Positions 2,782-49,601 are shown, numbered from the stretch's first letter. The stretch: DNA of 64,000 bases from an uncultured Rickettsiales bacterium (GCA_964436045.1 CAYTBN010000027.1:1409-65408); one strand, 5' to 3'. Program-made: numbers and translations. The notes: generated by a model not told the origin, from the letters alone.

Positions 2782-4421
2782 CGCCAGCCGTGTCGCGCTT
2801 CGCTTCCCCCCTCCGTTCGCCGATCTGGACCGCCTGCCTGCTGGGTCTGACGAGTTGCATGGGCCCGGGGGGGATCGTGCTGATGCCCGGATCGGGGGCG
2901 GGGGAGCCGCCGCTGGAACAGGTGGGCCCCGCGGCGGTGTCGTCCTGCGATCCGGAGGCCGTGGTCGATCAGCCCTTCCTGACCGAGGGGGACGAGGTCC
3001 AGCTGTCGTTCCACTGCGCATCCGGCGAGCCGGCCGATGCGTTCGAGGCCGACCTGATCAGCTCCGCCGACGGCGCGGAGCTGGACCCGCTGACGTGGTC
3101 CGTGAGCTGGTCGACGGGGTTCGCGGACGGAGGACGCCACGAGTTCCTGCTGTCCGTGCGGCCCGCCGCGGCGGCGGGCGTGGGCCACGACGCCGTACCC
3201 GAGACCGCGGTGGGCACGGTCTGGGTCGCCGACGCCCTCGGCCACCCGGCGAACGAGCCGGTGGTGCCGTCGCTCTACACCGAGGAGTGGGGGCTACCGG
3301 TGCTTCACCTGTTCCCGGGCGGTGAGCTGACCCAGGAACACGTGCCCACCATCATCACGTTCATGGGGCGGACCTACGACGCCGAGATGAAGATCCGCGG
3401 CGCAGCCAGCGTGTACTACCCCAAGAACAGCTACACCCTGCGCTTCGGTGACGAGGATCTGGACACCGGCGAGCTGGGACTCGGCACCAAGGACCACCTG
3501 GTCCTGATCACCAGCTTCGACGACAACAGCTACGTGCGCCAGAAGCTGGCCTACGACCTGTGGGCGGCCATTGCCGATCACTGGCAGCGCGACCGGCTGA
3601 CGCCGCGGACGTTCTTTGCGGTGGTCTATCTGAACGGCGAGTACTGGGGCCTGTTCACCGCCTGCGACCGCATCGACGACCACTTCGCCGAGGAGATGGG
3701 GCTCAGCCGCGAGGGCAACCTCTACAAGGCGATCAACCACGACGCCAACTTCTACAGCACCGGCTACTCGGGCTGGCCCAAGGAGACCCTGCACCAGGGG
3801 TACACCAAGGAGGAGGGGGAGCCGGCGGACGGCGAACCCGGGGCCTTCGACGACCTGGACGAGCTCGTGGCGTGGGCGTCGACCGCCAGCCAGTCCGACT
3901 TCATCGACCAGATGGAGGGCTGGTTCCGGGTGGACGAGTTCATGGACTGGCTGCTGTTCGTCCACTACACGGCGTCCGGCGACTCCGGTGGCAAGAACGC
4001 CTACCTGTACAACGACCTCGAGGCACCGGAGTTCCGCTACGCCCCCTGGGACTTCAACCACTCCTTCGGCCAGGGGTGGACCACCTACCGCATCGAACCC
4101 TACACGTACGACGACTTCACCTGGACCAACGGCATCTTCGCCCACTTCCAGGCCCACCCGGAGACGAGCGACGAGCTGTGGACGCGCTTCGACGAGCTGT
4201 GCGAATCCGGCCCCCTGCACGCGGACTGGTTCACCTCGCGGCTCGACGAGTACTACGCCCGGATCCATCCCTCGGCGCAGCGCGACTGGTCGGTGTGGGG
4301 GGCGTCCTACCTGAGCTACTGGGCAGCCTACAACGACCTGACCTACCCCGAGGAGCGCGCCTACCTCTACGACTGGCTGGCCGAGCGCGACTCCTGGGCC
4401 TGGGCCGATCACCCCCAGTGA
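2778..4421 (+). CDS. CotH kinase family lipoprotein (longer paralog)
   Basis: GTG 2778 overlaps the upstream stop (GTGA). Lipobox is LLGLTSC. The CotH-like core includes KIRGAASVYYPKNSYTLRF, VYLNGEYWGLF, NLYKAINHDANF and APWDFNHSFGQ. Confidence 0.8.
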   Translation: MTPAVSRFASPLRSPIWTACLLGLTSCMGPGGIVLMPGSGAGEPPLEQVGPAAVSSCDPEAVVDQPFLTEGDEVQLSFHCASGEPADAFEADLISSADGAELDPLTWSVSWSTGFADGGRHEFLLSVRPAAAAGVGHDAVPETAVGTVWVADALGHPANEPVVPSLYTEEWGLPVLHLFPGGELTQEHVPTIITFMGRTYDAEMKIRGAASVYYPKNSYTLRFGDEDLDTGELGLGTKDHLVLITSFDDNSYVRQKLAYDLWAAIADHWQRDRLTPRTFFAVVYLNGEYWGLFTACDRIDDHFAEEMGLSREGNLYKAINHDANFYSTGYSGWPKETLHQGYTKEEGEPADGEPGAFDDLDELVAWASTASQSDFIDQMEGWFRVDEFMDWLLFVHYTASGDSGGKNAYLYNDLEAPEFRYAPWDFNHSFGQGWTTYRIEPYTYDDFTWTNGIFAHFQAHPETSDELWTRFDELCESGPLHADWFTSRLDEYYARIHPSAQRDWSVWGASYLSYWAAYNDLTYPEERAYLYDWLAERDSWAWADHPQ

Positions 4422-38660: not shown

Positions 38661-38696
38661 GCCGAGTCCGAGTCCGAGTCCGAGTCCGAGTCCGAG
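38661..38696. repeat. (GAGTCC) hexanucleotide microsatellite, about 5.5 copies
   Basis: Perfect tandem hexamers directly after the ssb stop, between convergent genes. Confidence 0.85.
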
Positions 38697-40876: not shown

Positions 40877-41719
40877 TCAGGGGCTCAGGGCAACCCGGTG
40901 GGCGGAGATGTCCCCGGTCATGACGACGCCCAGGATCTCACCCTCGAAGCTGCCCTCCATCTCGTCGGAGGCCACGAACGAACCGGCGTAAGCGGTCGGC
41001 AGATCGAACCAGCCGAGGACGGAGATGCCGATCTCCCCGTCGATGGAGTCGCCGAGGATGTCGCCGCTGATCACCAGGTCCAGATCCAGATCCAGGTAGC
41101 CCGCGATGCTGGCGATGCAGGCGCCGGTACCGTCCAGCACCTCGCCGTAGGGGTCGACGATGAAGTCCACGGCCCCCACGCAGGCGCCGGAGATCGGGAC
41201 GCCCTGGATATCGAGGGCGATGCCGACGTTGACCGTTCCCGAGTAGACGCCGGCGTACTCGTGCTGGACCAGGATCCCACCGACCGCGTAGGTCAGCCGG
41301 TCCCCGTTGGGCAGCTCGGTCTCGGCCTTGATCACGTGCTCGCCGACCGGGAAGTCCTCGAACTCGCCGCTGGCGCCCACGTACTCGAAGGACTCGTCCT
41401 GATCGGTGGTCCAGAGGATCTCGTCGTAGCCCGTGGGATCGCCGTTCTCGTCCAGCACCTCGGCGTCCAGCAGCATCGGCGTGCCCAGCGGCACGAAGTC
41501 GCCCGACTCGGGCGAGTACACGACCAGCTCCGCGCCGTCCCACATGGAGTCGTCGTCCCCTGTGTCGTCGTCGTCGTCATCGTCATCGTCGGTCGGCGTG
41601 TCGTCGTCGCCGGTGTCGTCGTCATCGGCCGGAGGTGCCACGAGCCCCGTCTCCGAGCATCCCGCCAGTCCGAAGAGCAGCACGACAGCGAACACGAACA
41701 TGGTGTGCCAGCGACTCAT
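40877..41719 (-). CDS. Lipoprotein with poly-Asp linker
   Basis: Start MSRWHTMFVFAVVLLFGLAGC (lipobox). The linker PPADDDDTGDDDTPTDDDDDDDDDTGDDD follows. Then a beta-rich domain. Confidence 0.55.
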   Translation of the reverse strand: MSRWHTMFVFAVVLLFGLAGCSETGLVAPPADDDDTGDDDTPTDDDDDDDDDTGDDDSMWDGAELVVYSPESGDFVPLGTPMLLDAEVLDENGDPTGYDEILWTTDQDESFEYVGASGEFEDFPVGEHVIKAETELPNGDRLTYAVGGILVQHEYAGVYSGTVNVGIALDIQGVPISGACVGAVDFIVDPYGEVLDGTGACIASIAGYLDLDLDLVISGDILGDSIDGEIGISVLGWFDLPTAYAGSFVASDEMEGSFEGEILGVVMTGDISAHRVALSP

Positions 41720-41854
41720 CTTCACCTCCTGGCCCGTGAACCCGGCACGCAGTATGGCCCACCCACCCCCCACCGACAAGGGCGCAGCGTGGCCTGGGGC
41801 GGGCTGAATCAGCCTTTTCCTCTCCCCTCCCGGAGCTGCCGTATACTGCCGCTC

Positions 41855-42112
41855 ATGACGAAAAAAACGATGGAGAAGCTGTCGTTCGAGCAGGCGCTGG
41901 TGCGGCTGGAGGAGATCGTGGGGCAGATGGAGGCCGGCGAGGTGACGCTGGATGCCTCGCTGTCGCTGTTCGAGGAGGGGACCGCGCTGTCGCGCCACTG
42001 CACGGGCAAGCTCGACGCGGCGGAGGAGCGGATCCGGGTCCTGACGGACGATGGCGCGGGCGGTATCGCCGAACAGGATCTGGACGGACCCGCCGACGGC
42101 GGGGGCAGCTGA
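41855..42112 (+). CDS. xseB: Exodeoxyribonuclease VII small subunit
   Basis: 85 aa. SFEQALVRLEEIVGQME...LDASLSLFEEG is the canonical XseB sequence. Confidence 0.85.
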   Translation: MTKKTMEKLSFEQALVRLEEIVGQMEAGEVTLDASLSLFEEGTALSRHCTGKLDAAEERIRVLTDDGAGGIAEQDLDGPADGGGS

Positions 42113-42120
42113 GCCCCCCC

Positions 42121-42867
42121 GTGGCCAGGGATCGGCTGCGACTGGATGCCCTGCTGGTGCAGCGGGGAGACGTGCCGTCGAGGGAGCGGGCCCGGGCACT
42201 GATCATGGCGGGCGACGTGCTGGTGGACGACCGGCCGGTGGACAAGCCGGGGACCCGGATCGCGGCGGACGCCACCATCCGGCTGCGGGTCCCCGACCAT
42301 CCCTACGTAGGCCGCGGCGGCGTCAAGCTGGCCGGGGCCCTCGACGACCTGGACGTCTCGGTGTCAGGCCTGCGCTGCCTGGACGTGGGTGCCAGCACCG
42401 GGGGCTTCACCGACTGCCTGCTACAGCGTGGGGCGATCTCGGTGACCGCGGTGGACGTGGGCACCAATCAGCTGGACTGGCGGCTACGCTCCGATCCGCG
42501 GGTCCGCGTCCTGGAGCGAACCGACATCCGCAAGCTGGACCCCGCCGAGGCCGGCGGGCCCTACCCCCTGATCACCATCGACGTCAGCTTCATCTCCCTG
42601 CGCCTGGTCCTGCCGCCGGTCATCGGCCTGCTGGAGCGGTCCGGGCGCGTGCTGGCGATAATCAAGCCCCAGTTCGAGGTGGGACGGGAGCGGGTGGGCA
42701 AGGGCGGCGTGGTGCGGGACCCGGCCGTCCGTCAGGAAGCCATCGACGCTGTGATCGGTGTCGGCGACTCCCTCGGAATGGCGTTCGTGGGCTCGGCCGA
42801 CGCGCGGATCGCCGGCGCGAAGAAGGGCAATCGCGAACACTTCGCGCTGTGGATCTCGGGGGGGTAG
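42121..42867 (+). CDS. tlyA: TlyA-family rRNA 2'-O-methyltransferase
   Basis: S4-like N-terminus (RLDALLVQRG). FtsJ-like MTase motif is LDVGASTGGFTD. Confidence 0.85.
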   Translation: MARDRLRLDALLVQRGDVPSRERARALIMAGDVLVDDRPVDKPGTRIAADATIRLRVPDHPYVGRGGVKLAGALDDLDVSVSGLRCLDVGASTGGFTDCLLQRGAISVTAVDVGTNQLDWRLRSDPRVRVLERTDIRKLDPAEAGGPYPLITIDVSFISLRLVLPPVIGLLERSGRVLAIIKPQFEVGRERVGKGGVVRDPAVRQEAIDAVIGVGDSLGMAFVGSADARIAGAKKGNREHFALWISGG

Positions 42868-42919
42868 CGGAAGGCGGGGCGGTGGGCGGGGCCCGCCGGG
42901 GCCCGCCCCTACCGGTTCC

Positions 42920-43516
42920 CTACAGGTCTTCCATGGGGTGCATCGTGCACTCCGCGAAGTTCCCATCGTAGAAATCGGTGCAGCAGTACCAGACCTCGAA
43001 GTTGTGGCCCAGATTCTCGCAGACGAACAGGGACTCGTCAACCAGCGGCGGCCAGGTCATCGTGTAGTCCAGGTCCAGCCACCAGCTGTCCCAGAAGCCG
43101 TTCAGGTCGTCCCAGCCGAAGCTGTACTCGTCCGTTACCATCTCCCAACCGGGACGCTCGATGCCGCCGTAGTTGCAGGGATCGCCGGCAACGTCGAACC
43201 CCTCGCAGTAGCCCGGGTCCTCGGTCAGGTCCCACATCTCGACCCAGCAGTCCTCGGCCCAACCGTCCATCTCGACGAAGAAGTCGAACGTGCCGCTGGG
43301 CGGCGGCTCGTCCGACGAGCTCGGCACGTCGACCGTGCAGCCGGTCTCCAGATACGCGTTGCCCATGTCGATGGTGCCCGTGTAATCGGGCCGGTCGTCA
43401 TCCGTCGTGTCGTCGTCGTCACCGGCGGAATCGTCGTCATCCTCGACGGTCGGACAACCCCACATGATCAATCCCAAGCCCAGCATCAGCACGAGGAACA
43501 GGTTCGTGTTCTTCAT
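42920..43516 (-). CDS. Lipoprotein with poly-Asp linker and Trp/Cys-rich C-terminal domain
   Basis: GGGAGAGGA RBS precedes the start MKNTNLFLVLMLGLGLIMWGC. The linker is EDDDDSAGDDDDTTDDD. The C-terminal domain has many W/C/D residues (WDDLNGFWDSWWLDLDYTMTW). Confidence 0.55.
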   Translation of the reverse strand: MKNTNLFLVLMLGLGLIMWGCPTVEDDDDSAGDDDDTTDDDRPDYTGTIDMGNAYLETGCTVDVPSSSDEPPPSGTFDFFVEMDGWAEDCWVEMWDLTEDPGYCEGFDVAGDPCNYGGIERPGWEMVTDEYSFGWDDLNGFWDSWWLDLDYTMTWPPLVDESLFVCENLGHNFEVWYCCTDFYDGNFAECTMHPMEDL

Positions 43517-43672
43517 TTGGTCCTCTCCCTTTTTCTCGTTGGCTTCCCCACCGACCCATGAACGGGTCGATACACGCCTCGTATTTTGCGGCAATTTAGC
43601 ATGGGGTCGAGGGCCCTGAACAGGGCACTTCGTTTCCCCATACCGATTTCAGGTTGCTAACATCGCTGATCG

Positions 43673-44083
43673 ATGATGGCAACCCCCCGCCGCCTCCCCA
43701 CCCTGCTCCCGTTGACAGCGCTGTTGCTGATCTCGACCGCCTCCCTCGGCGGGTGCGCCCACCGCCATACCGAAGAGGGCAAGGCCACCTGGTACGGCCC
43801 GGGCTTCGTGGGCAAGCACACCGCCAACGGCGAACGGTTCTGGCCCTGCCGGCTGACGGCCGCGCACAAGACCCTGCCCTTCGACACCCGGGTCAAGGTC
43901 ACCAACCTGGAGAACGGAAAGGTCGTCCGGGTCCGAATCAACGATCGTGGCCCCTTCGGCGAGGGCAGGATCATCGACCTGTCCCGGGCGGCGGCGGCGG
44001 CGATCAAGATGGTACGAGCGGGGGTAGTGAAGGTGGAGATCGAGGTGATCAAGTGGCCGAAGGGGCACAAACCGGAGTCATGA
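43673..44083 (+). CDS. RlpA-like lipoprotein (double-psi beta-barrel)
   Basis: Lipobox SLGGC, then [21 protein letters not shown]...[26 protein letters not shown] (DPBB). Confidence 0.75.
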
Positions 44084-44122
44084 CTCGGACTCGGCCACCA
44101 GAAGGAGCCAGAAGGAATATGA

Positions 44123-44222
44123 ACCACAGAGGACACAGAGGACACCGAGAGGAGGGATGGGAACGACGATTCCCTACCCCTTCCCAACCCCTCCTCTGTG
44201 CCCTCTGAGCCCTCTGTGGTTA
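44123..44222. repeat. Long imperfect inverted repeat (about 33-nt arms, about 30-nt loop), purine-rich arm / pyrimidine-rich arm
   Basis: Arm 1 is AACCACAGAGGACACAGAGGACACCGAGAGGAGGG. Arm 2 is CCCCTCCTCTGTGCCCTCTGAGCCCTCTGTGGTT. Arms are largely complementary with a few mismatches/bulges, and each is internally built of 9-mer direct repeats. Confidence 0.6.
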
Positions 44223-44246
44223 ACTTCTTTCCGGACTTGGAGAACG

Positions 44247-45170
44247 ATGCGGCTGCTCGCAACCACCTTCCTCCTCCTCGCCCTACCCTCCCCCGCCCAG
44301 GCACAGCTGGCCAACGACAAGGGGCCGTCGCTGGCGGTGGTGGTGGAGCGGTGTTTCCGTGGGACCGGGGACGACGGGAGCTGGCTGGACCAGCTGGACT
44401 GGGCGGTCCTGTGTGACCTGGCCCAGGATGCCTTCGAGGGCGGCGGGCGCTCGGAGCGCGACGGCTCGGGCGACCCGACCTGGGCGTCTCCTGCGCGAGC
44501 TGCCTTCGACGCCCAGTGGCCCACCGAGCCCGAAGACGACATCGCTCTGCTCGCGCGCGAGCGGCAGCGGCGAGCGTTGGACGCCGGCGTCGAGGCGATC
44601 CAGTCGCTGACCGAACCCTGGGACGCCCGCGGCTCCGCCGACACCGTCCGGGGTGCCACGCTGGAGCTCCACCTCTACGCGCGGATCCTGGATGACGCCA
44701 TCGACGAGGGCGGGCGAGTACACCGACAGCAGGCGCTCATGGCCCAGAATCTGCTGTGGCGCTCGTGCACCACCCTGGCGCTGGCCAGCCCCGGCCGGCG
44801 GACCGCCGTCGAGGGGATCATCGCCGAGACCGTGGAGGCCGCCGCCCCGCACTCGGCTGCCGGCAGCGTGGCCCGCTGGGGCAAGAAGAACCACCACCTG
44901 CTGGTCGCCCCGGCGCTGCTGGCGCCGGCGTCCGCGGACTTCGACGGCCTCCGCACGGAGCTCTCGTGGGGCATCTGGGCGCTACAGGTCAGCTCCGAGC
45001 TGCGCGAGCAACTCTCCCCCGCCGACATCGCGGCCATCCGCGACGTGCTCACGGCCCACAATCACCCCGCCCACATCCGCGCGCTGCGCGACGGCGGCTG
45101 GTCACGCCTCTCCGAGGTCTACCTGATCGGCGTCCTGCAGGCCATCGCCGTCGTGCGCGAGAACGAGTAG
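44247..45170 (+). CDS. Secreted hypothetical protein
   Basis: Signal peptide MRLLATTFLLLALPSPAQA. About 307 aa, alpha-helical, no known motif. Confidence 0.45.
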   Translation: MRLLATTFLLLALPSPAQAQLANDKGPSLAVVVERCFRGTGDDGSWLDQLDWAVLCDLAQDAFEGGGRSERDGSGDPTWASPARAAFDAQWPTEPEDDIALLARERQRRALDAGVEAIQSLTEPWDARGSADTVRGATLELHLYARILDDAIDEGGRVHRQQALMAQNLLWRSCTTLALASPGRRTAVEGIIAETVEAAAPHSAAGSVARWGKKNHHLLVAPALLAPASADFDGLRTELSWGIWALQVSSELREQLSPADIAAIRDVLTAHNHPAHIRALRDGGWSRLSEVYLIGVLQAIAVVRENE

Positions 45171-45620: not shown

Positions 45621-46001
45621 TCAGAGGCTCGGGCCGGTGGGATCCTCGTCTTCCAGATCCTGGAAGGATGGCTGCTCGGGCAGCTCGAGATCCTCGCAGG
45701 TCGGCGCCGCGGCCACCGAGAGGTTGGCGGTGATACACCAATCGTAGAGCGCGTTGCGATCCTCGGTCCGGGCCACGACGAGGGCGCGCTCGAAGCGGTC
45801 CAGGCACTTGGAGTGGTACTCCTCCGCCGAATCCGCGCCCACGCTCTGCCACGTGAGGTCCTCGGTACCGCTGTCGTCGGGCGGCACCACACACCCATTG
45901 TAGAAGTCAGTGATGCTGTCGCAGTAGGTCTGGCACGGCGTGTTGCAGCCGGCGAGCACCAGTCCGGCCAGCGCCGGGATCCACCACCATCGTATGTTCA
46001 T
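45621..46001 (-). CDS. Hypothetical lipoprotein (last gene of Tad-like locus operon)
   Basis: Start MNIRWWWIPALAGLVLAGC. Cys-rich. Its start overlaps the cpaF2 stop (ATGA). Confidence 0.5.
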   Translation of the reverse strand: MNIRWWWIPALAGLVLAGCNTPCQTYCDSITDFYNGCVVPPDDSGTEDLTWQSVGADSAEEYHSKCLDRFERALVVARTEDRNALYDWCITANLSVAAAPTCEDLELPEQPSFQDLEDEDPTGPSL

Positions 46002-47134
46002 TTTTTCAGATCCTCCTTGCGCCGGGCCGCCTCGGCCATGTCGGCCATGGCCTTGGGGAGCGCGATCCCTTGAAGCCGGATGTCCTCGGCGAACGCGGGT
46101 ACCCCGCGACATTCGAGACGGCCGATGGGGCCATCCTTGCCCCGGGCCACCACGCGGTACCGGTAGATATCTGTCACCTGATACGAGTTGTCCTTGGTAA
46201 GCGTCAGCACCTCGGAGACGTGGGTCACCTTGCGGGTCCCGTCGGGGAAGCGCTGGATCTGAACCAGCAGGTCGATGGACGACGAGATCTGGGACCGCAG
46301 CGCATGGAGCGGCAGTTGCACATCGCTCATCATGCACAGGGTCTCGATTCGGGCCAGGGCATCGTGGGGGTTGTTGGCGTGGGTGGTGCTCATCGAGCCC
46401 CGGTGACCCGATGTCATCGCCTGGACCAGGTCCAGCGCCTCGGGACCGCGCACCTCGCCGATCACGATCCGATCGGGCCGCATCCGCAGGCTCGTGCGCA
46501 GCAGATCGCGCATGGAGACCTCGCCCCTGCCGTCCCGGTCCGGCGGCCGCGTCTCCAGCGTGATCACGTGGGGCTGCTGCAGCTGGAGCTCGCTGCTGTC
46601 CTCGAGCACGAGGATCCGCTGGTCGAGGGGGATGCGCGTCGACAGCACGTTGAGCAGCGAGGTCTTCCCCGAGCCGGTCCCACCGGTGACCAGCAGGTTG
46701 CGGGAGCTCGCGACGCAGACGCCGAGGAACTCCGCCGTCTCCTCCGACAAGGTCTGCAGCTGGACCAGCTTTTCGATGTTCATCACCTCGCGCTGGAACT
46801 TGCGGATCGCCAGGTAGATGCCTTGCCGGGCAACCGGCGGCATGATCACGGTCACCCGGGCACCGTCGGGCAGGCGGGCGTCGAGCAAGGGCTGCTCGGC
46901 ACTGATGCTCTTGCCCACGAACTGGGCGATGTTGCGCACCGCGGAATCCAGCGCGGCCTCGTCGGGGAACCGCAGCTGGGTCTGGTGCAGTCGCCCCGCC
47001 CGCTCGACGTACACCTCGCTGGCGCCGTTCACCAGGATGTCGGAGACCTTGGGATCCGCCAGCGCCTGGGACACCGGTTGGAGGTGGTCCCGCAGGGTCT
47101 GCGCGAAGATCTCGTTCAGGGATACCTGCGCCAC
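45998..47134 (-). CDS. CpaF/TadA-family secretion ATPase (paralog 2, no FHA domain)
   Basis: Walker A is GGTGSGKTSLLNVL. T2SSE motifs are IVIGEVRGPEALD and MTSGHRGSMSTTHAN. GTG start at 47134 is supported by GGGGAG 7 nt upstream; the track ATG at 47191 would overlap the upstream gene by 56 nt. Confidence 0.8.
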   Translation of the reverse strand: MAQVSLNEIFAQTLRDHLQPVSQALADPKVSDILVNGASEVYVERAGRLHQTQLRFPDEAALDSAVRNIAQFVGKSISAEQPLLDARLPDGARVTVIMPPVARQGIYLAIRKFQREVMNIEKLVQLQTLSEETAEFLGVCVASSRNLLVTGGTGSGKTSLLNVLSTRIPLDQRILVLEDSSELQLQQPHVITLETRPPDRDGRGEVSMRDLLRTSLRMRPDRIVIGEVRGPEALDLVQAMTSGHRGSMSTTHANNPHDALARIETLCMMSDVQLPLHALRSQISSSIDLLVQIQRFPDGTRKVTHVSEVLTLTKDNSYQVTDIYRYRVVARGKDGPIGRLECRGVPAFAEDIRLQGIALPKAMADMAEAARRKEDLKK

Positions 47135-47135
47135 G

Positions 47136-49601
47136 TCACAGCTCCCCCAGGCGTGAGGCCGCCTTGTCGTAGTACGTGAACCCGTCGCCACGGGGGGCGA
47201 TCGCCATCACCTGCTCGTACGACTCGCGCGCGGACTCGACGCCCCCGCCGCGTTCGGTCTGGTACCCCTCCAGGTAGATACCCTTGGCGATCTCCTCGAG
47301 CTCCTTGCGTCCGGCCGAGATGCCCTTGTGGCTCGACCACGCCTTGCGCCCCGAGCTCCATTCGAAGTTGGCCTTGGCGTACTTGCCGTTGTCGAAGGCC
47401 TCCCGACCACGCCGGTAGCGGCACTCGGCCAAGCCCTGTCGGATCTCGTCCCGCCGGTTGTTGCTGCCTTCCATCCGCGTGACGTTCTTGTACGAGGACT
47501 CGAAGCGGTCCAACGCCGCGTCCAGCTCACCGCGGTCCATCGCCTTGTTGCCGGCGGCGAAGGCCCGCTCGACGCGGTCGAGGCGGCCGAGCACGTCCTG
47601 CAGCTCGAGCTTCTGCCCGGGATCGGAGGCCGTGTCGATGGCCCGCTCGAGGGTGGATCGCGCCTGCTCGACATCGCCCGCCGTATAGGCCGATATTGCC
47701 TGTTCGGCGACCTTCTCGGCCGAGCTCGAGGAGCGGCGTTCGTCCCGCGACGAGCGATCGCGGTCACGGTCCCGATCGCGGTCACGGTCACGGCCCGCCT
47801 CCTGCGCGGGGGTACTGTCCTCGGTCGCCACCGTTTCGGGGATGCCAGCGGTGTCCAGCTCCCGCCCCAGGTTCTCCTTGTACTGCTCGATCAGCTTCTT
47901 GCGCTTCCGCGGCTTGGCCTCGGCGATGGACCTCAGCTCATCGGGCCCGCTGACCGCGGGGTCGTAGGCCTCCGCCCCGTCCAGCGAAGCGAGGGCGTCG
48001 TCGATGTTGTCGTTCTCGAGGGCCACCACCGCCTCGTCCACCATCCGGCGGGCCACCAGCGGGATCATCGGCTCCACCAGCGACTTGGCCTGGATGAAGT
48101 AGCAGGAGGTGGCCGGAATACTCTTGTAGGCCTCGTAGGCACGGCCGAAGTCCAGATGCACGCTGGACTGGCTGTACAGCTTGACGAACTCCTGGACGTC
48201 CCCCAGCCGGGACAGGTTGTCCCGCTCCTGGGCGATGTTCTGGAGGTAGGCCTGGGCCTCGGTGTAGCGGGGATCGATATCGATCAACTGAACCAGGTAG
48301 CCCTCGGCGGTGTCCCAGTCCTGCTCGTCGTACGAGGCCGCCCCCGCCAGGTACATCGGCTCCATGTCGCGGCGGGTGTTGCCCGCACCGAAGTTGAACA
48401 TGTAGCCGGCGGCCTGGAACAACAGCGCGAGCACGATCACGACGCCGACAGATCCCAGGATCGCCAGCTGCCAGGTGCGGAACTGGAGCCCCCCCACCGC
48501 CACGAGCCCCTTCTTCGCGGGCTTGGCTGCGGTCTGGGCAACCGGCGCGGCCTGACGCGGAGGCGCCGTCTGGGGCCCCAGGGTCGCGCCGGCCTGGACG
48601 CTCGGTGGCAACGCGCTCACTTCGCGCATGGTCGCCGCGGTGCGACCGCTGCGAGAGGGCGGGCCGGGTGTCAGTGCCTGGGTCGGATGGCCGGACGGCG
48701 GCAGCGGCGCCGCCGCACTCATCTGGGCTGCGAGGGACGCTGGCGCAGCCTCGCCTGGCCGCCGGAAGAGCATCAGCACGCCGCCGATCTGCAGGCGCGT
48801 CCCGTTGATCAGCTCCGCCTGGGCGACGTCCTGGCTGTCCACCCGGATTCCGTTGGTGGACCCGGTGTCCTTGACCACGTACCGTCCGCCGTCCAGGTCG
48901 ACCCTGGCGTGCTGGCGGGACACGAACGGGTCGTCCAGTACCAGGTTGTTGCGGCTGCCGGCGCCGATGGTCACACCCCGACTCCCGACCGTGATCATGT
49001 GCCCCTTGCCGTCGCCGTCGACGATCTCGAGATAGGCGTGACCCTCGCGCGCGGTCATTCCACTCTCGGTCGCCCGCACGACGTCGGCCGGCGAGGCCCC
49101 CCCCGGCGCCCGTCCGGCGAGGGGGTCGGTCATGGGCATCGAGCGGGCGAACTGGCCCGGCGGAGTGGCGGGGGGCTGTGCCGGTGCCGCCTCCACGGGA
49201 TCCAGCAGGTCGGAGACATCCGCGTCCGCCGGCGAAGGGGCGCCCGGATCGAAGGCCTCGGGGACCGGCGAGCTGCCCTTGGGCCGCAGGTAGCCCGGCA
49301 GCCCCTCGTCGCCCTCGGCGAACACCAGTTCGTAGGGGCCTACCCGGATCCGGTCGCCGGTGGAGATGGCCACCTCGCCGTCGACCCGGATCCCGTTGAT
49401 CAGGGTGCCGTTGGACGAGTTGAGGTCCTTTGCGGCAAACCCGCCATCCTGCTTGATGATCTGACAATGGAACTTGCTGACCTGGCGGTCGCCGAGCACG
49501 AGGTGGTTGCGACTGTCCCGGCCGACGGCGAACTCGTCCCGGTCGACCGGGCGGGAGAAGCTCCGCCCGTCGGCCGTACTGACGGTGATCTGCGCCGTCA
49601 T
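47136..49601 (-). CDS. Double-FHA-domain membrane protein with C-terminal TPR-like domain
   Basis: Two FHA cores are present: FAVGRDSRNHLVL...SSNGTLINGIRV and ITVGSRGVTIGAGSRNNLVL...STNGIRV. A Pro/Ala-rich linker follows. One TM helix is present (LAILGSVGVVIVLALLF). A (DR)5 low-complexity tract and helical TPR-like repeats follow. Confidence 0.75.
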   Translation of the reverse strand: MTAQITVSTADGRSFSRPVDRDEFAVGRDSRNHLVLGDRQVSKFHCQIIKQDGGFAAKDLNSSNGTLINGIRVDGEVAISTGDRIRVGPYELVFAEGDEGLPGYLRPKGSSPVPEAFDPGAPSPADADVSDLLDPVEAAPAQPPATPPGQFARSMPMTDPLAGRAPGGASPADVVRATESGMTAREGHAYLEIVDGDGKGHMITVGSRGVTIGAGSRNNLVLDDPFVSRQHARVDLDGGRYVVKDTGSTNGIRVDSQDVAQAELINGTRLQIGGVLMLFRRPGEAAPASLAAQMSAAAPLPPSGHPTQALTPGPPSRSGRTAATMREVSALPPSVQAGATLGPQTAPPRQAAPVAQTAAKPAKKGLVAVGGLQFRTWQLAILGSVGVVIVLALLFQAAGYMFNFGAGNTRRDMEPMYLAGAASYDEQDWDTAEGYLVQLIDIDPRYTEAQAYLQNIAQERDNLSRLGDVQEFVKLYSQSSVHLDFGRAYEAYKSIPATSCYFIQAKSLVEPMIPLVARRMVDEAVVALENDNIDDALASLDGAEAYDPAVSGPDELRSIAEAKPRKRKKLIEQYKENLGRELDTAGIPETVATEDSTPAQEAGRDRDRDRDRDRDRSSRDERRSSSSAEKVAEQAISAYTAGDVEQARSTLERAIDTASDPGQKLELQDVLGRLDRVERAFAAGNKAMDRGELDAALDRFESSYKNVTRMEGSNNRRDEIRQGLAECRYRRGREAFDNGKYAKANFEWSSGRKAWSSHKGISAGRKELEEIAKGIYLEGYQTERGGGVESARESYEQVMAIAPRGDGFTYYDKAASRLGEL

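Follow-up and report, generated by a model that had tools for sequence, protein, structure and literature searches.

REP and REPIN sequences reportedly exist in partnership with RAYT proteins, and the RAYT transposase has been proposed to mobilise REPINs in trans. The 23S rRNA intervening sequences of Leptospira and Coxiella provide another case of a gene carried within a palindrome, here an S23p (four-helix-bundle) ORF located inside a long stem that is removed by RNase III. Among homing endonucleases, I-Ssp6803I is a PD-(D/E)XK enzyme, and the targets of homing are normally single-copy conserved genes. REPs themselves are palindromic units of 20–40 bp, one end of which carries an unpaired tag, GTAG or CGTC (Di Nocera 2013, PMC3733652).

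Here we describe a long hairpin found between an rlpA-like gene and its downstream neighbour, orf307, in a 64-kb stretch of DNA from an uncultured Rickettsiales bacterium (64,000 nt in all, referred to below as the window). Taking together its sequence, its distribution and the genes found in related elements, we consider that this hairpin probably belongs to a family of selfish DNA palindromes that resemble REPINs and are associated with a nuclease, and that it is a copy without a gene, acquired by insertion in the source lineage.

The rlpA–orf307 spacer

The spacer is 163 nt long, running from the TGA stop codon of the rlpA-like gene (44081–44083) to the ATG of the next gene at 44247. The features of the region, in window coordinates, are:

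43673–44083, + strand: upstream rlpA-like gene, encoding a rare lipoprotein A-like protein of 136 aa with a DPBB_1 domain
44084–44094, + strand: left microsatellite remnant CTCGGACTCGG, from the hexamer array that fills the spacer of relatives
44111–44117, + strand: outer stem extension GAAGGAA (a weak stem), pairing with 44225–44231 and lying inside a 10-mer tandem
44119–44224, no strand assigned: full-length match to the family covariance model (model positions 1–89 of 89)
44122–44149, + strand: 5' arm, AA-CCACAGAGG-ACACAGAGG-ACACCGAG, three tandem units of ~9 nt each
44124–44219: core palindrome, from CCACAGAGG at 44124 to CCTCTGTGG at 44219
44148–44197, + strand: inner stem and apical region, copy-specific, with AGAGGAGGGATGGG pairing with CCAACCCCTCCTCT
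44194–44221, + strand: 3' arm, CTCTGTG-CCCTCTGAG-CCCTCTGTGG-TT, the complement of three units
44225–44231, + strand: outer stem extension TTCTTTC, partner of 44111–44117
44233–44246, + strand: right edge CGGACTTGGAGAACG, common to relatives and outside the core hairpin
44247–45170, + strand: downstream gene orf307, encoding 307 aa with a signal peptide-like N-terminus and no Pfam match

The core of the hairpin begins 40 nt past the rlpA stop codon and the imperfect palindrome as a whole occupies 44111–44231, a span of ~121 nt. Both arms are tandem arrays of 8–9-nt units, the unit type of this copy being CACAGAGGN: on the 5' side there are two copies of CACAGAGGA followed by CACCGAG (44125–44149) and on the 3' side three copies of CCTCTGNGC (44193–44219). 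Within the arms, the inner stem is formed by pairing of 44148–44161 with 44184–44197. Two further tandem duplications are present, one of 11 nt (TTCCCNACCCC, 44170–44192) in the apical part and one of 10 nt (CCAGAAGGAG, 44098–44116) at the outer edge of the 5' side. The ribosome-binding site, GGAG at 44239–44242, lies outside the core stem. On the - strand the apical part is rich in G-tracts and G-quadruplex-like, with 44171–44190 reading GGGGTTGGGAAGGGGTAGGG.

By several measures this is an exceptional structure. It is the top-ranked inverted repeat of the entire window, and an 18-mer array matches four times in the window, all four matches falling within the hairpin (0.08 expected in the window). 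The original prediction had described a long imperfect hairpin built from 9-mer repeats in this spacer, with few mismatches in its stem; its coordinates and repeats proved correct, and the 28-nt arms (44122–44149 and 44194–44221) show 86% complementarity. The loop, which had been put at ~30 nt, is in fact shorter, with only ~13–17 nt at the apex, because the inner stem pairs. Folding of both strands bore out the structure, the minimum free energy of the RNA being -73.2 kcal/mol (z -5.8) for the + strand and -88.6 kcal/mol (z -6.4) for the - strand, with none of 200 shuffled sequences folding equally well. The element had also been thought too long, and too far from a T-run, for a standard terminator and this too holds good, the scan calling no intrinsic terminator at the hairpin and the 3' flank, TTAACTTCTTTCC, having no T-run. 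A comparison of the spacer with Rfam 15, again on both strands, lent nothing to the idea of a known RNA, the best match reaching 39 bits where the gathering threshold is 96, and every match being to a generic microRNA-precursor hairpin.

The same locus in related lineages

Ten metagenome contigs encode an identical rlpA protein and the spacer is identical in all of them; they therefore come from the same population and offer no variation to analyse. Beyond these, orf307 has just 15 homologues, which make up a narrow family. The rlpA–orf307 order is kept in six related lineages, with orf307 proteins that are 70–84% identical, and in these the hairpin is replaced by other sequence. In L011 and L012 the spacer consists of 71 nt of uninterrupted (CTCGGT)n microsatellite and in L016 and L017 it is an interrupted (CTCGGT)n array; L014, L015 and L021 have (CTCGGT)n arrays where their contigs end. 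The spacer of L018 is a G-tract, whilst L013 (1127–1130) and L019 (4001–4004) have no spacer at all, the two genes overlapping by 4 nt (ATGA). A search of the relatives' rlpA–orf307 loci with a covariance model of the hairpin family (model R1, below) found no match.

Comparison with these relatives thus shows that the hairpin is present in the source lineage only, the spacer being a microsatellite or absent elsewhere. Since the window retains only the edges of the relatives' spacer, with CTCGGACTCGG next to rlpA and CGGACTTGGAGAACG next to orf307, some ~135 nt (~44095–44232) are lineage-specific. The overlap seen in L013 and L019 suggests that the genes form one operon, with translational coupling where the insertion is absent. 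As both genes overlap in relatives, rlpA and orf307 are probably co-transcribed, and a bicistronic rlpA–orf307 transcript very probably includes the hairpin.

A number of other properties of this region were recorded. Hexamer microsatellites of the (CCGAGT / CTCGGT / GGTCTC)n type occur in the intergenic DNA of the source lineage and its relatives, including one at 38662–38696 of the window, directly 3' of the SSB stop codon. In the rlpA–orf307 spacer itself the arrays lie at 3930–3995 in L011, 1–55 in L014, 3897–3995 in L016 and 1–16 in L021, as well as in L012 and L015, and several of the relatives' contigs break within the hexamer array. The spacer of L018 (128–165) reads GGGGTTGGGGGGGACGGGGAACGGGGATGGGGACGGG, with G-quadruplex-like runs of G-tracts. 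Just downstream in the window (45998–49601, - strand) are Tad-pilus-like genes, one for an ATPase of the T2SSE/CpaF type and one for an FHA/TPR protein of 821 aa, and TadE and RcpC genes are also found near the locus in relatives (L020). Upstream, at 40877–43594, there are two small predicted lipoproteins without a Pfam match that carry long runs of aspartate (DDDDTGDDD and DDDDSAGDDDD) past the signal peptide.

A dispersed family of hairpins

We searched for the arms elsewhere using a 22-base pattern, CCACAGAGGRCWCAGAGGRCAC, that fits both of them. In a genome collection of 596 Gb, chance alone should produce ~0.5 matches to it (596e9 × 2 × 8 / 4^22, by our own arithmetic). The pattern was found at no fewer than 120 loci in isolate genomes and MAGs from more than 10 phyla, and in a viral collection on at least 120 contigs. 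Hosts among the matches listed include members of the Acidobacteriota, Gemmatimonadota, Planctomycetota, Chloroflexota, Verrucomicrobiota and Desulfobacterota, together with Burkholderiales, Cyanobacteria (Microcoleus), Bacteroides, Chryseobacterium, Thioalkalivibrio and Sorangium; several genomes, again among the matches listed, gave more than one locus. Complete isolate genomes are found among the hosts, which excludes an assembly artefact. There was no match in 5,426 E. coli genomes, nor in the cultured phages of INPHARED. In Gemmatirosa kalamazoonensis KBS708 a local variant of the hairpin, built from CGCAGAGG units, occurs at ≥39 and ≥34 places on two 1-Mb replicons.

The bacterial loci among the matches listed yielded 62 distinct complete hairpins of 61–253 nt with one common anatomy. 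The 5' half consists of a T-rich flank and two variable bases followed by CCACAGAGG-RCACAGAGG-RCACAGAG and an unconserved spacer, and the 3' half of CTCTGTG-NY-CTCTGTG-Y-CCTCTGTGG followed by the complementary flank. The number of units per hairpin ranges from two to at least seven. A covariance model, R1, built from 33 hairpins, all of them from other genomes, matches the window copy over its full length on both strands, scoring 67.0 bits on the - strand (E 9e-16) and 62.2 bits on the + strand (E 1.8e-14), and the exact 22-mer is present on both strands of the window copy. Because a model derived from foreign genomes matches it from end to end, membership of the window hairpin in the family is secure: it is an ordinary gene-less ('solo') member. 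There is no second copy in the 64-kb window by the exact pattern, the pattern with three mismatches, a generic regular expression for the unit or the covariance model.

The core of the hairpin is nearly invariant and is therefore uninformative on pairing. The pair just outside the core does covary (GC 17, AU 14, GU 1, unpaired 0): it is Watson–Crick in 60 of the 62 hairpins, an R:Y pair with A and G equally frequent, and in the window it is represented by A44123–T44220. The next pair outward covaries as well (AU 13, CG 6, UA 4). Such covariation fits equally well with a hairpin under selection and with a palindrome at the DNA level whose arms are kept alike. Within a single copy the two arms correspond to each other, also when their units are not the same as those of other copies.

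As to their surroundings, 46 of the 62 hairpins are intergenic by crude ORF calls, typically located 6–40 nt past a stop codon. Neighbouring genes point in the same direction in 28 cases, converge in eight and diverge in three, and the hairpins themselves show no bias in orientation with respect to these genes. A TTTT run within 12 nt downstream is seen in just eight of the 62 copies. No excess of direct repeats indicative of a target-site duplication was detected in the 62 copies at offsets of 0–8 and lengths of 2–8, and we found no clean pair of filled and empty sites with exact junctions, hence no direct evidence of movement.

Pairs of matches separated by 0.45–5 kb were considered as possible transposon ends and rejected, the pair in Bacteroides (L058), for example, being two independent hairpins between housekeeping genes. 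Among the classes of paired matches, only elements of 467–481 nt hold a gene.

Association with GxxExxY genes

In these 467–481-nt elements (L097, L107, L129 and L137) an ORF of ~120 aa lies between the arms. In all four the ORF belongs to the GxxExxY family (TIGR04256, E 1e-42 to 1e-45; PF13366, PDDEXK_3), and an HMM search of 858 kb of loci ascertained with the pattern (among the matches listed) found four GxxExxY genes, every one of them between arms. The same type of search found no GxxExxY gene in the 64-kb window. The ORF caller reads through the arm in L137 (5116–6357), fusing a QueC-like gene to the GxxExxY gene.

We also assembled a sample of GxxExxY loci independently of the pattern, by a metagenome scan with protein alignment in which 545 of 600 candidates were confirmed and the best 80 of these retained. 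A significant inverted repeat brackets the gene at 60 of the 78 loci with enough flanking sequence, as compared with 1/78 when the downstream flank was shuffled and 18/78 when it was exchanged for that of another locus; the resulting figure of 77% may overstate the association across the family, since the sample consists of the best matches to arm-flanked queries. With a strict list of CACAGAGG-type units, both arms were recognised at 20 and at least one arm at 39 of these best 80 loci. Many of the remaining loci are built in the same way from variant units, which are matched between the two arms of one locus, as in the pairs CACGAAGG/CCTTCGTG, CACAAAGG/CCTTTGTG and CAGTGAGG/CCTCACTG, and likewise in CACGGAGG/CCTCCGTG and CGCAGAGG/CCTCTGCG. 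In the gene-bearing cassettes, mismatches compatible with G.U pairing number 108 in the sense and 96 in the antisense direction, that is, there is no strand bias.

The cassette of Bacteroides finegoldii illustrates how compact these elements can be: the radA stop codon is followed by 5 nt, an arm, the ORF, the second arm and 9 nt before the next ATG. The annotation there records the CDS alone. Among 72,556 records of plasmids, the hairpin is found in eight and a GxxExxY gene likewise in eight, two records having both. One of the G. kalamazoonensis replicons has GxxExxY sequences at three places, and one such gene lies between two complete hairpins. These hairpins are located at 205–291 and 791–878 of L343 (G. 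kalamazoonensis plasmid 1), and the gene is thus flanked by whole hairpins, not by half-arms as in the compact cassette; it is possibly frameshifted, as the tblastn match is in two pieces. The coexistence of many gene-less hairpins with few nuclease genes corresponds to the population structure reported for REPINs and RAYTs.

The GxxExxY family is large, with more than 4,258 homologues at E < 1e-10. Its invariant residues, E28, D68, E78 and K80, form a PD-(D/E)XK catalytic pattern, and the predicted nuclease looks active. No relative with a solved structure was found by sequence. An AlphaFold (AF2) model of the protein has a pLDDT of 92.9, and its best fold matches in the PDB, all of them weak, are to Cas4 SSO0001, the lambda exonuclease family and tRNA-splicing endonucleases, with further weak matches to the R2 endonuclease domain and the homing endonuclease I-Bth0305I. 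To our knowledge, no cleavage activity has been reported for a GxxExxY protein. The one statement on its function that the literature search turned up lists it as 'Unknown', with 'multiple transfers' (Steczkiewicz et al. 2012, PMC3424549). Neither the repeat nor its association with GxxExxY is described in the searchable full-text literature, a search that does not extend to subscription literature and database comment fields.

Viral contigs and turnover of units

In viral contigs the arms are mostly solitary, 98 of 136 having no partner within 3.5 kb among the matches listed, and solitary arms are also found in bacteria. No GxxExxY gene was present in 1.04 Mb of viral contigs, again among the matches listed. 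Other small ORFs lie between arms in phage contigs. The viral arms are positioned exactly at gene boundaries: within one phage they are read in frame as the N-terminal sequence M(K/R)(I/L)TTEDTE... on several different genes, and when antisense they are read as a C-terminal ...SSVPSVSSVVK. A simple nuclease model does not explain these solitary, read-through arms in viruses. The number of 9-nt units also changes quickly, ranging from two to eight at one phage junction among 16 related contigs.

A group of IMG/VR phages has arrays of arms at the 5' ends of genes that read M(K/R)(I/L)TTEDTE(D/G)TE (for example L189, with three arms, and L153, L156, L174, L199, L230 and L344–L351). Read-through of arms elsewhere gives rise to spurious tails such as HRGHRGHRE, LCPLCPLW and SVSSVSSV (e.g. 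L188, L217 and L256). Because ORF callers read through the arms in this way, the repeats probably contaminate protein databases.

Origin and function of the hairpin

How might such an element have come to lie between rlpA and orf307? Under the selfish-palindrome explanation, the unit arrays would be the recognition sites of the co-travelling GxxExxY nuclease, which may either mobilise gene-less copies in trans, in the manner of RAYT, or home into the arrays in the manner of a homing endonuclease. On this view the gene-less hairpins would represent a non-autonomous or 'empty' state of the element, and the family would spread by horizontal transfer. On the rlpA–orf307 transcript the element is probably a passive passenger, and any effect that so stable a stem-loop might have on mRNA processing or downstream expression would be a plausible but secondary side effect. 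The absence of target-site duplications, of G.U asymmetry and of orientation bias, together with retention of the unit sequence, favours selection at the DNA level and a sequence-specific protein. The original prediction had offered a protein-binding site as one of three possibilities, and this comes closest: recognition by the GxxExxY nuclease is the most plausible form of it, although this step is one that we infer. Conservation beyond this genome, named there as a check, turned out to be divided, there being none at the locus and strong conservation as a dispersed repeat.

The main rival, though an unlikely one, is that the hairpin is instead an RNA element on the rlpA–orf307 transcript, perhaps co-opted as REPs have been. 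It would impede 3'-to-5' decay, act as a substrate for RNase III or attenuate read-through, with unequal expression of the two genes as the result. The + strand fold of -73 kcal/mol, the probable co-transcription of two genes that overlap in relatives and the covarying pairs outside the conserved core would all suit such a role. So would the excess of same-direction and convergent over divergent neighbours and the usual location 6–40 nt past a stop codon, REPs being similarly distributed and a role as RNA having been suggested for them (PMC3733652). The region just past a stop codon is, however, also the least harmful site for a selfish insertion, and such a position fits both explanations equally well. 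Any stable hairpin would serve as an RNA element, yet the unit sequence is kept across phyla; G.U pairs are not in excess on the transcribed strand (108 vs 96) and the hairpins have no preferred orientation; T-runs follow only eight of the 62; and at this locus the hairpin is missing from all orthologous spacers and leaves the ribosome-binding site outside its core stem.

A further idea, rather improbable in our view, is that a DNA-binding protein of the host, nucleoid-associated or regulatory and unrelated to GxxExxY, binds the arms as an array of sites, into which GxxExxY genes merely prefer to insert. The units are indeed conserved in sequence, tandem and set in inverted arrays, solitary arrays without a partner arm exist, and GxxExxY genes could home into palindromes that were already there. 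A host protein would nevertheless have to be common to all the phyla and phages involved, and there is no such factor; moreover, units that differ between loci and match within a locus are better accounted for by a protein that travels with them.

The suggestion of a locus-specific small RNA, or of a riboregulator of the downstream secreted protein, was also made in the original prediction and is now largely refuted, so that we regard it as very improbable. The structure is significant on both strands and lies in the 5' region of orf307, but the hairpin is kept in no relative with the same gene pair, being missing from this spacer in all related lineages sampled; a consensus scan found no promoter-like or terminator-like site around it; the Rfam matches are sub-threshold and generic; and the same element adjoins unrelated genes in many phyla. 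Almost no credence can be given to an origin on the spot, in which slippage during replication, together with template switching, would have built tandem units and an inverted duplication, without function, in a spacer prone to repeats; this explanation is refuted. In its favour, the spacer is hypervariable, with microsatellites in relatives, the window copy has extra local duplications (the 10-mer and 11-mer) and unit number varies from two to eight among related phage contigs at a single junction. Slippage nevertheless accounts for differences in the number of copies and not for origin, and it leaves unaccounted for both the full-length 62–67-bit match to a foreign-genome model and an exact 22-mer common to at least 240 loci elsewhere.

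Returning to the selfish palindrome, a broader proposal can be put forward, more tentatively and with the balance of our own judgement slightly against it. GxxExxY proteins and palindromic arms of 8–9-mers may together constitute a class of selfish or mobile element not described before, where a minimal PD-(D/E)XK nuclease recognises the arrays, mobilising gene-less hairpins or homing into them, and which would be found across most bacterial phyla and phages, the window hairpin being a non-autonomous copy.

GxxExxY (PF13366 / TIGR04256) is a large family of no known function. Its genes are habitually set between complementary arrays of 8–9-nt units, arrays that are also abundant as gene-less hairpins, and the family thereby gains a concrete, testable substrate. 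The results also point to a second partnership of nuclease and palindrome beside REPIN–RAYT, with a different enzyme fold and a reach across phyla. For genome annotation, the hairpins are at present unannotated and are read as spurious N- or C-terminal extensions (TTEDTEDTE, SVSSVSSV), and they vary in unit number between close relatives. For the window itself, the practical consequence is that its hairpin is not to be taken for a regulator devoted to the secreted protein encoded next to it.

Comparison with known systems

Certain better-known elements can be set aside quickly. Integron attC sites were dropped on inspection of the sequence, there being no RYYYAAC/GTTRRRY ends, as were CRISPR and Tn7- or Mu-type ends. 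Intrinsic terminators and stabilising intercistronic stem-loops share with the present element a stable hairpin shortly past a stop codon, but here there is no T-run, the stem is far longer than needed and sequence is conserved besides structure.

The 23S rRNA intervening sequences resemble the gene-bearing cassettes in having a small, sporadic, horizontally spread ORF in the loop of a long inverted-repeat stem. They differ in that the present elements lie between protein-coding genes and encode an ORF of a different family. Free-standing homing endonuclease genes offer a parallel of another kind, with a compact nuclease gene inside its presumed recognition sequence and gene-less sites also in existence, although the presumed target here, unlike that of a homing endonuclease, is a multi-copy palindromic repeat.

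Like MITEs, the hairpins are small, non-coding and dispersed, with inverted-repeat ends, vary in presence from one relative to another and are matched by larger forms that carry a gene. Unlike MITEs, they have no target-site duplication at any offset, a partner of the DDE transposase type was not seen, and their 'terminal repeats' are internally tandem-repetitive with a variable number of units. Elements in which such ends enclose a gene do exist; the protein encoded there is of the PD-(D/E)XK type and not a known transposase.

It is REPIN–RAYT that the element most resembles in the way it works. REPs and REPINs, too, are short palindromes that lie between genes and number many copies in a genome, mostly after coding regions and between same-direction or convergent neighbours, with inverted copies that bracket a small nuclease or transposase gene and with most copies being gene-less hairpins. 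Against this, the hairpins described here end in CCAC...GTGG, have arms of tandem 8–9-mers and carry no GTAG or CGTC tag. Among the ORFs between paired arms that were compared with a family library, GxxExxY / PDDEXK_3 is the only recognisable protein family, so that where RAYT is an HUH tyrosine transposase the partner here is a 120-aa PD-(D/E)XK protein. And whereas REPs are mostly species-specific, the unit sequence of these hairpins is common to phyla and to viral contigs alike.
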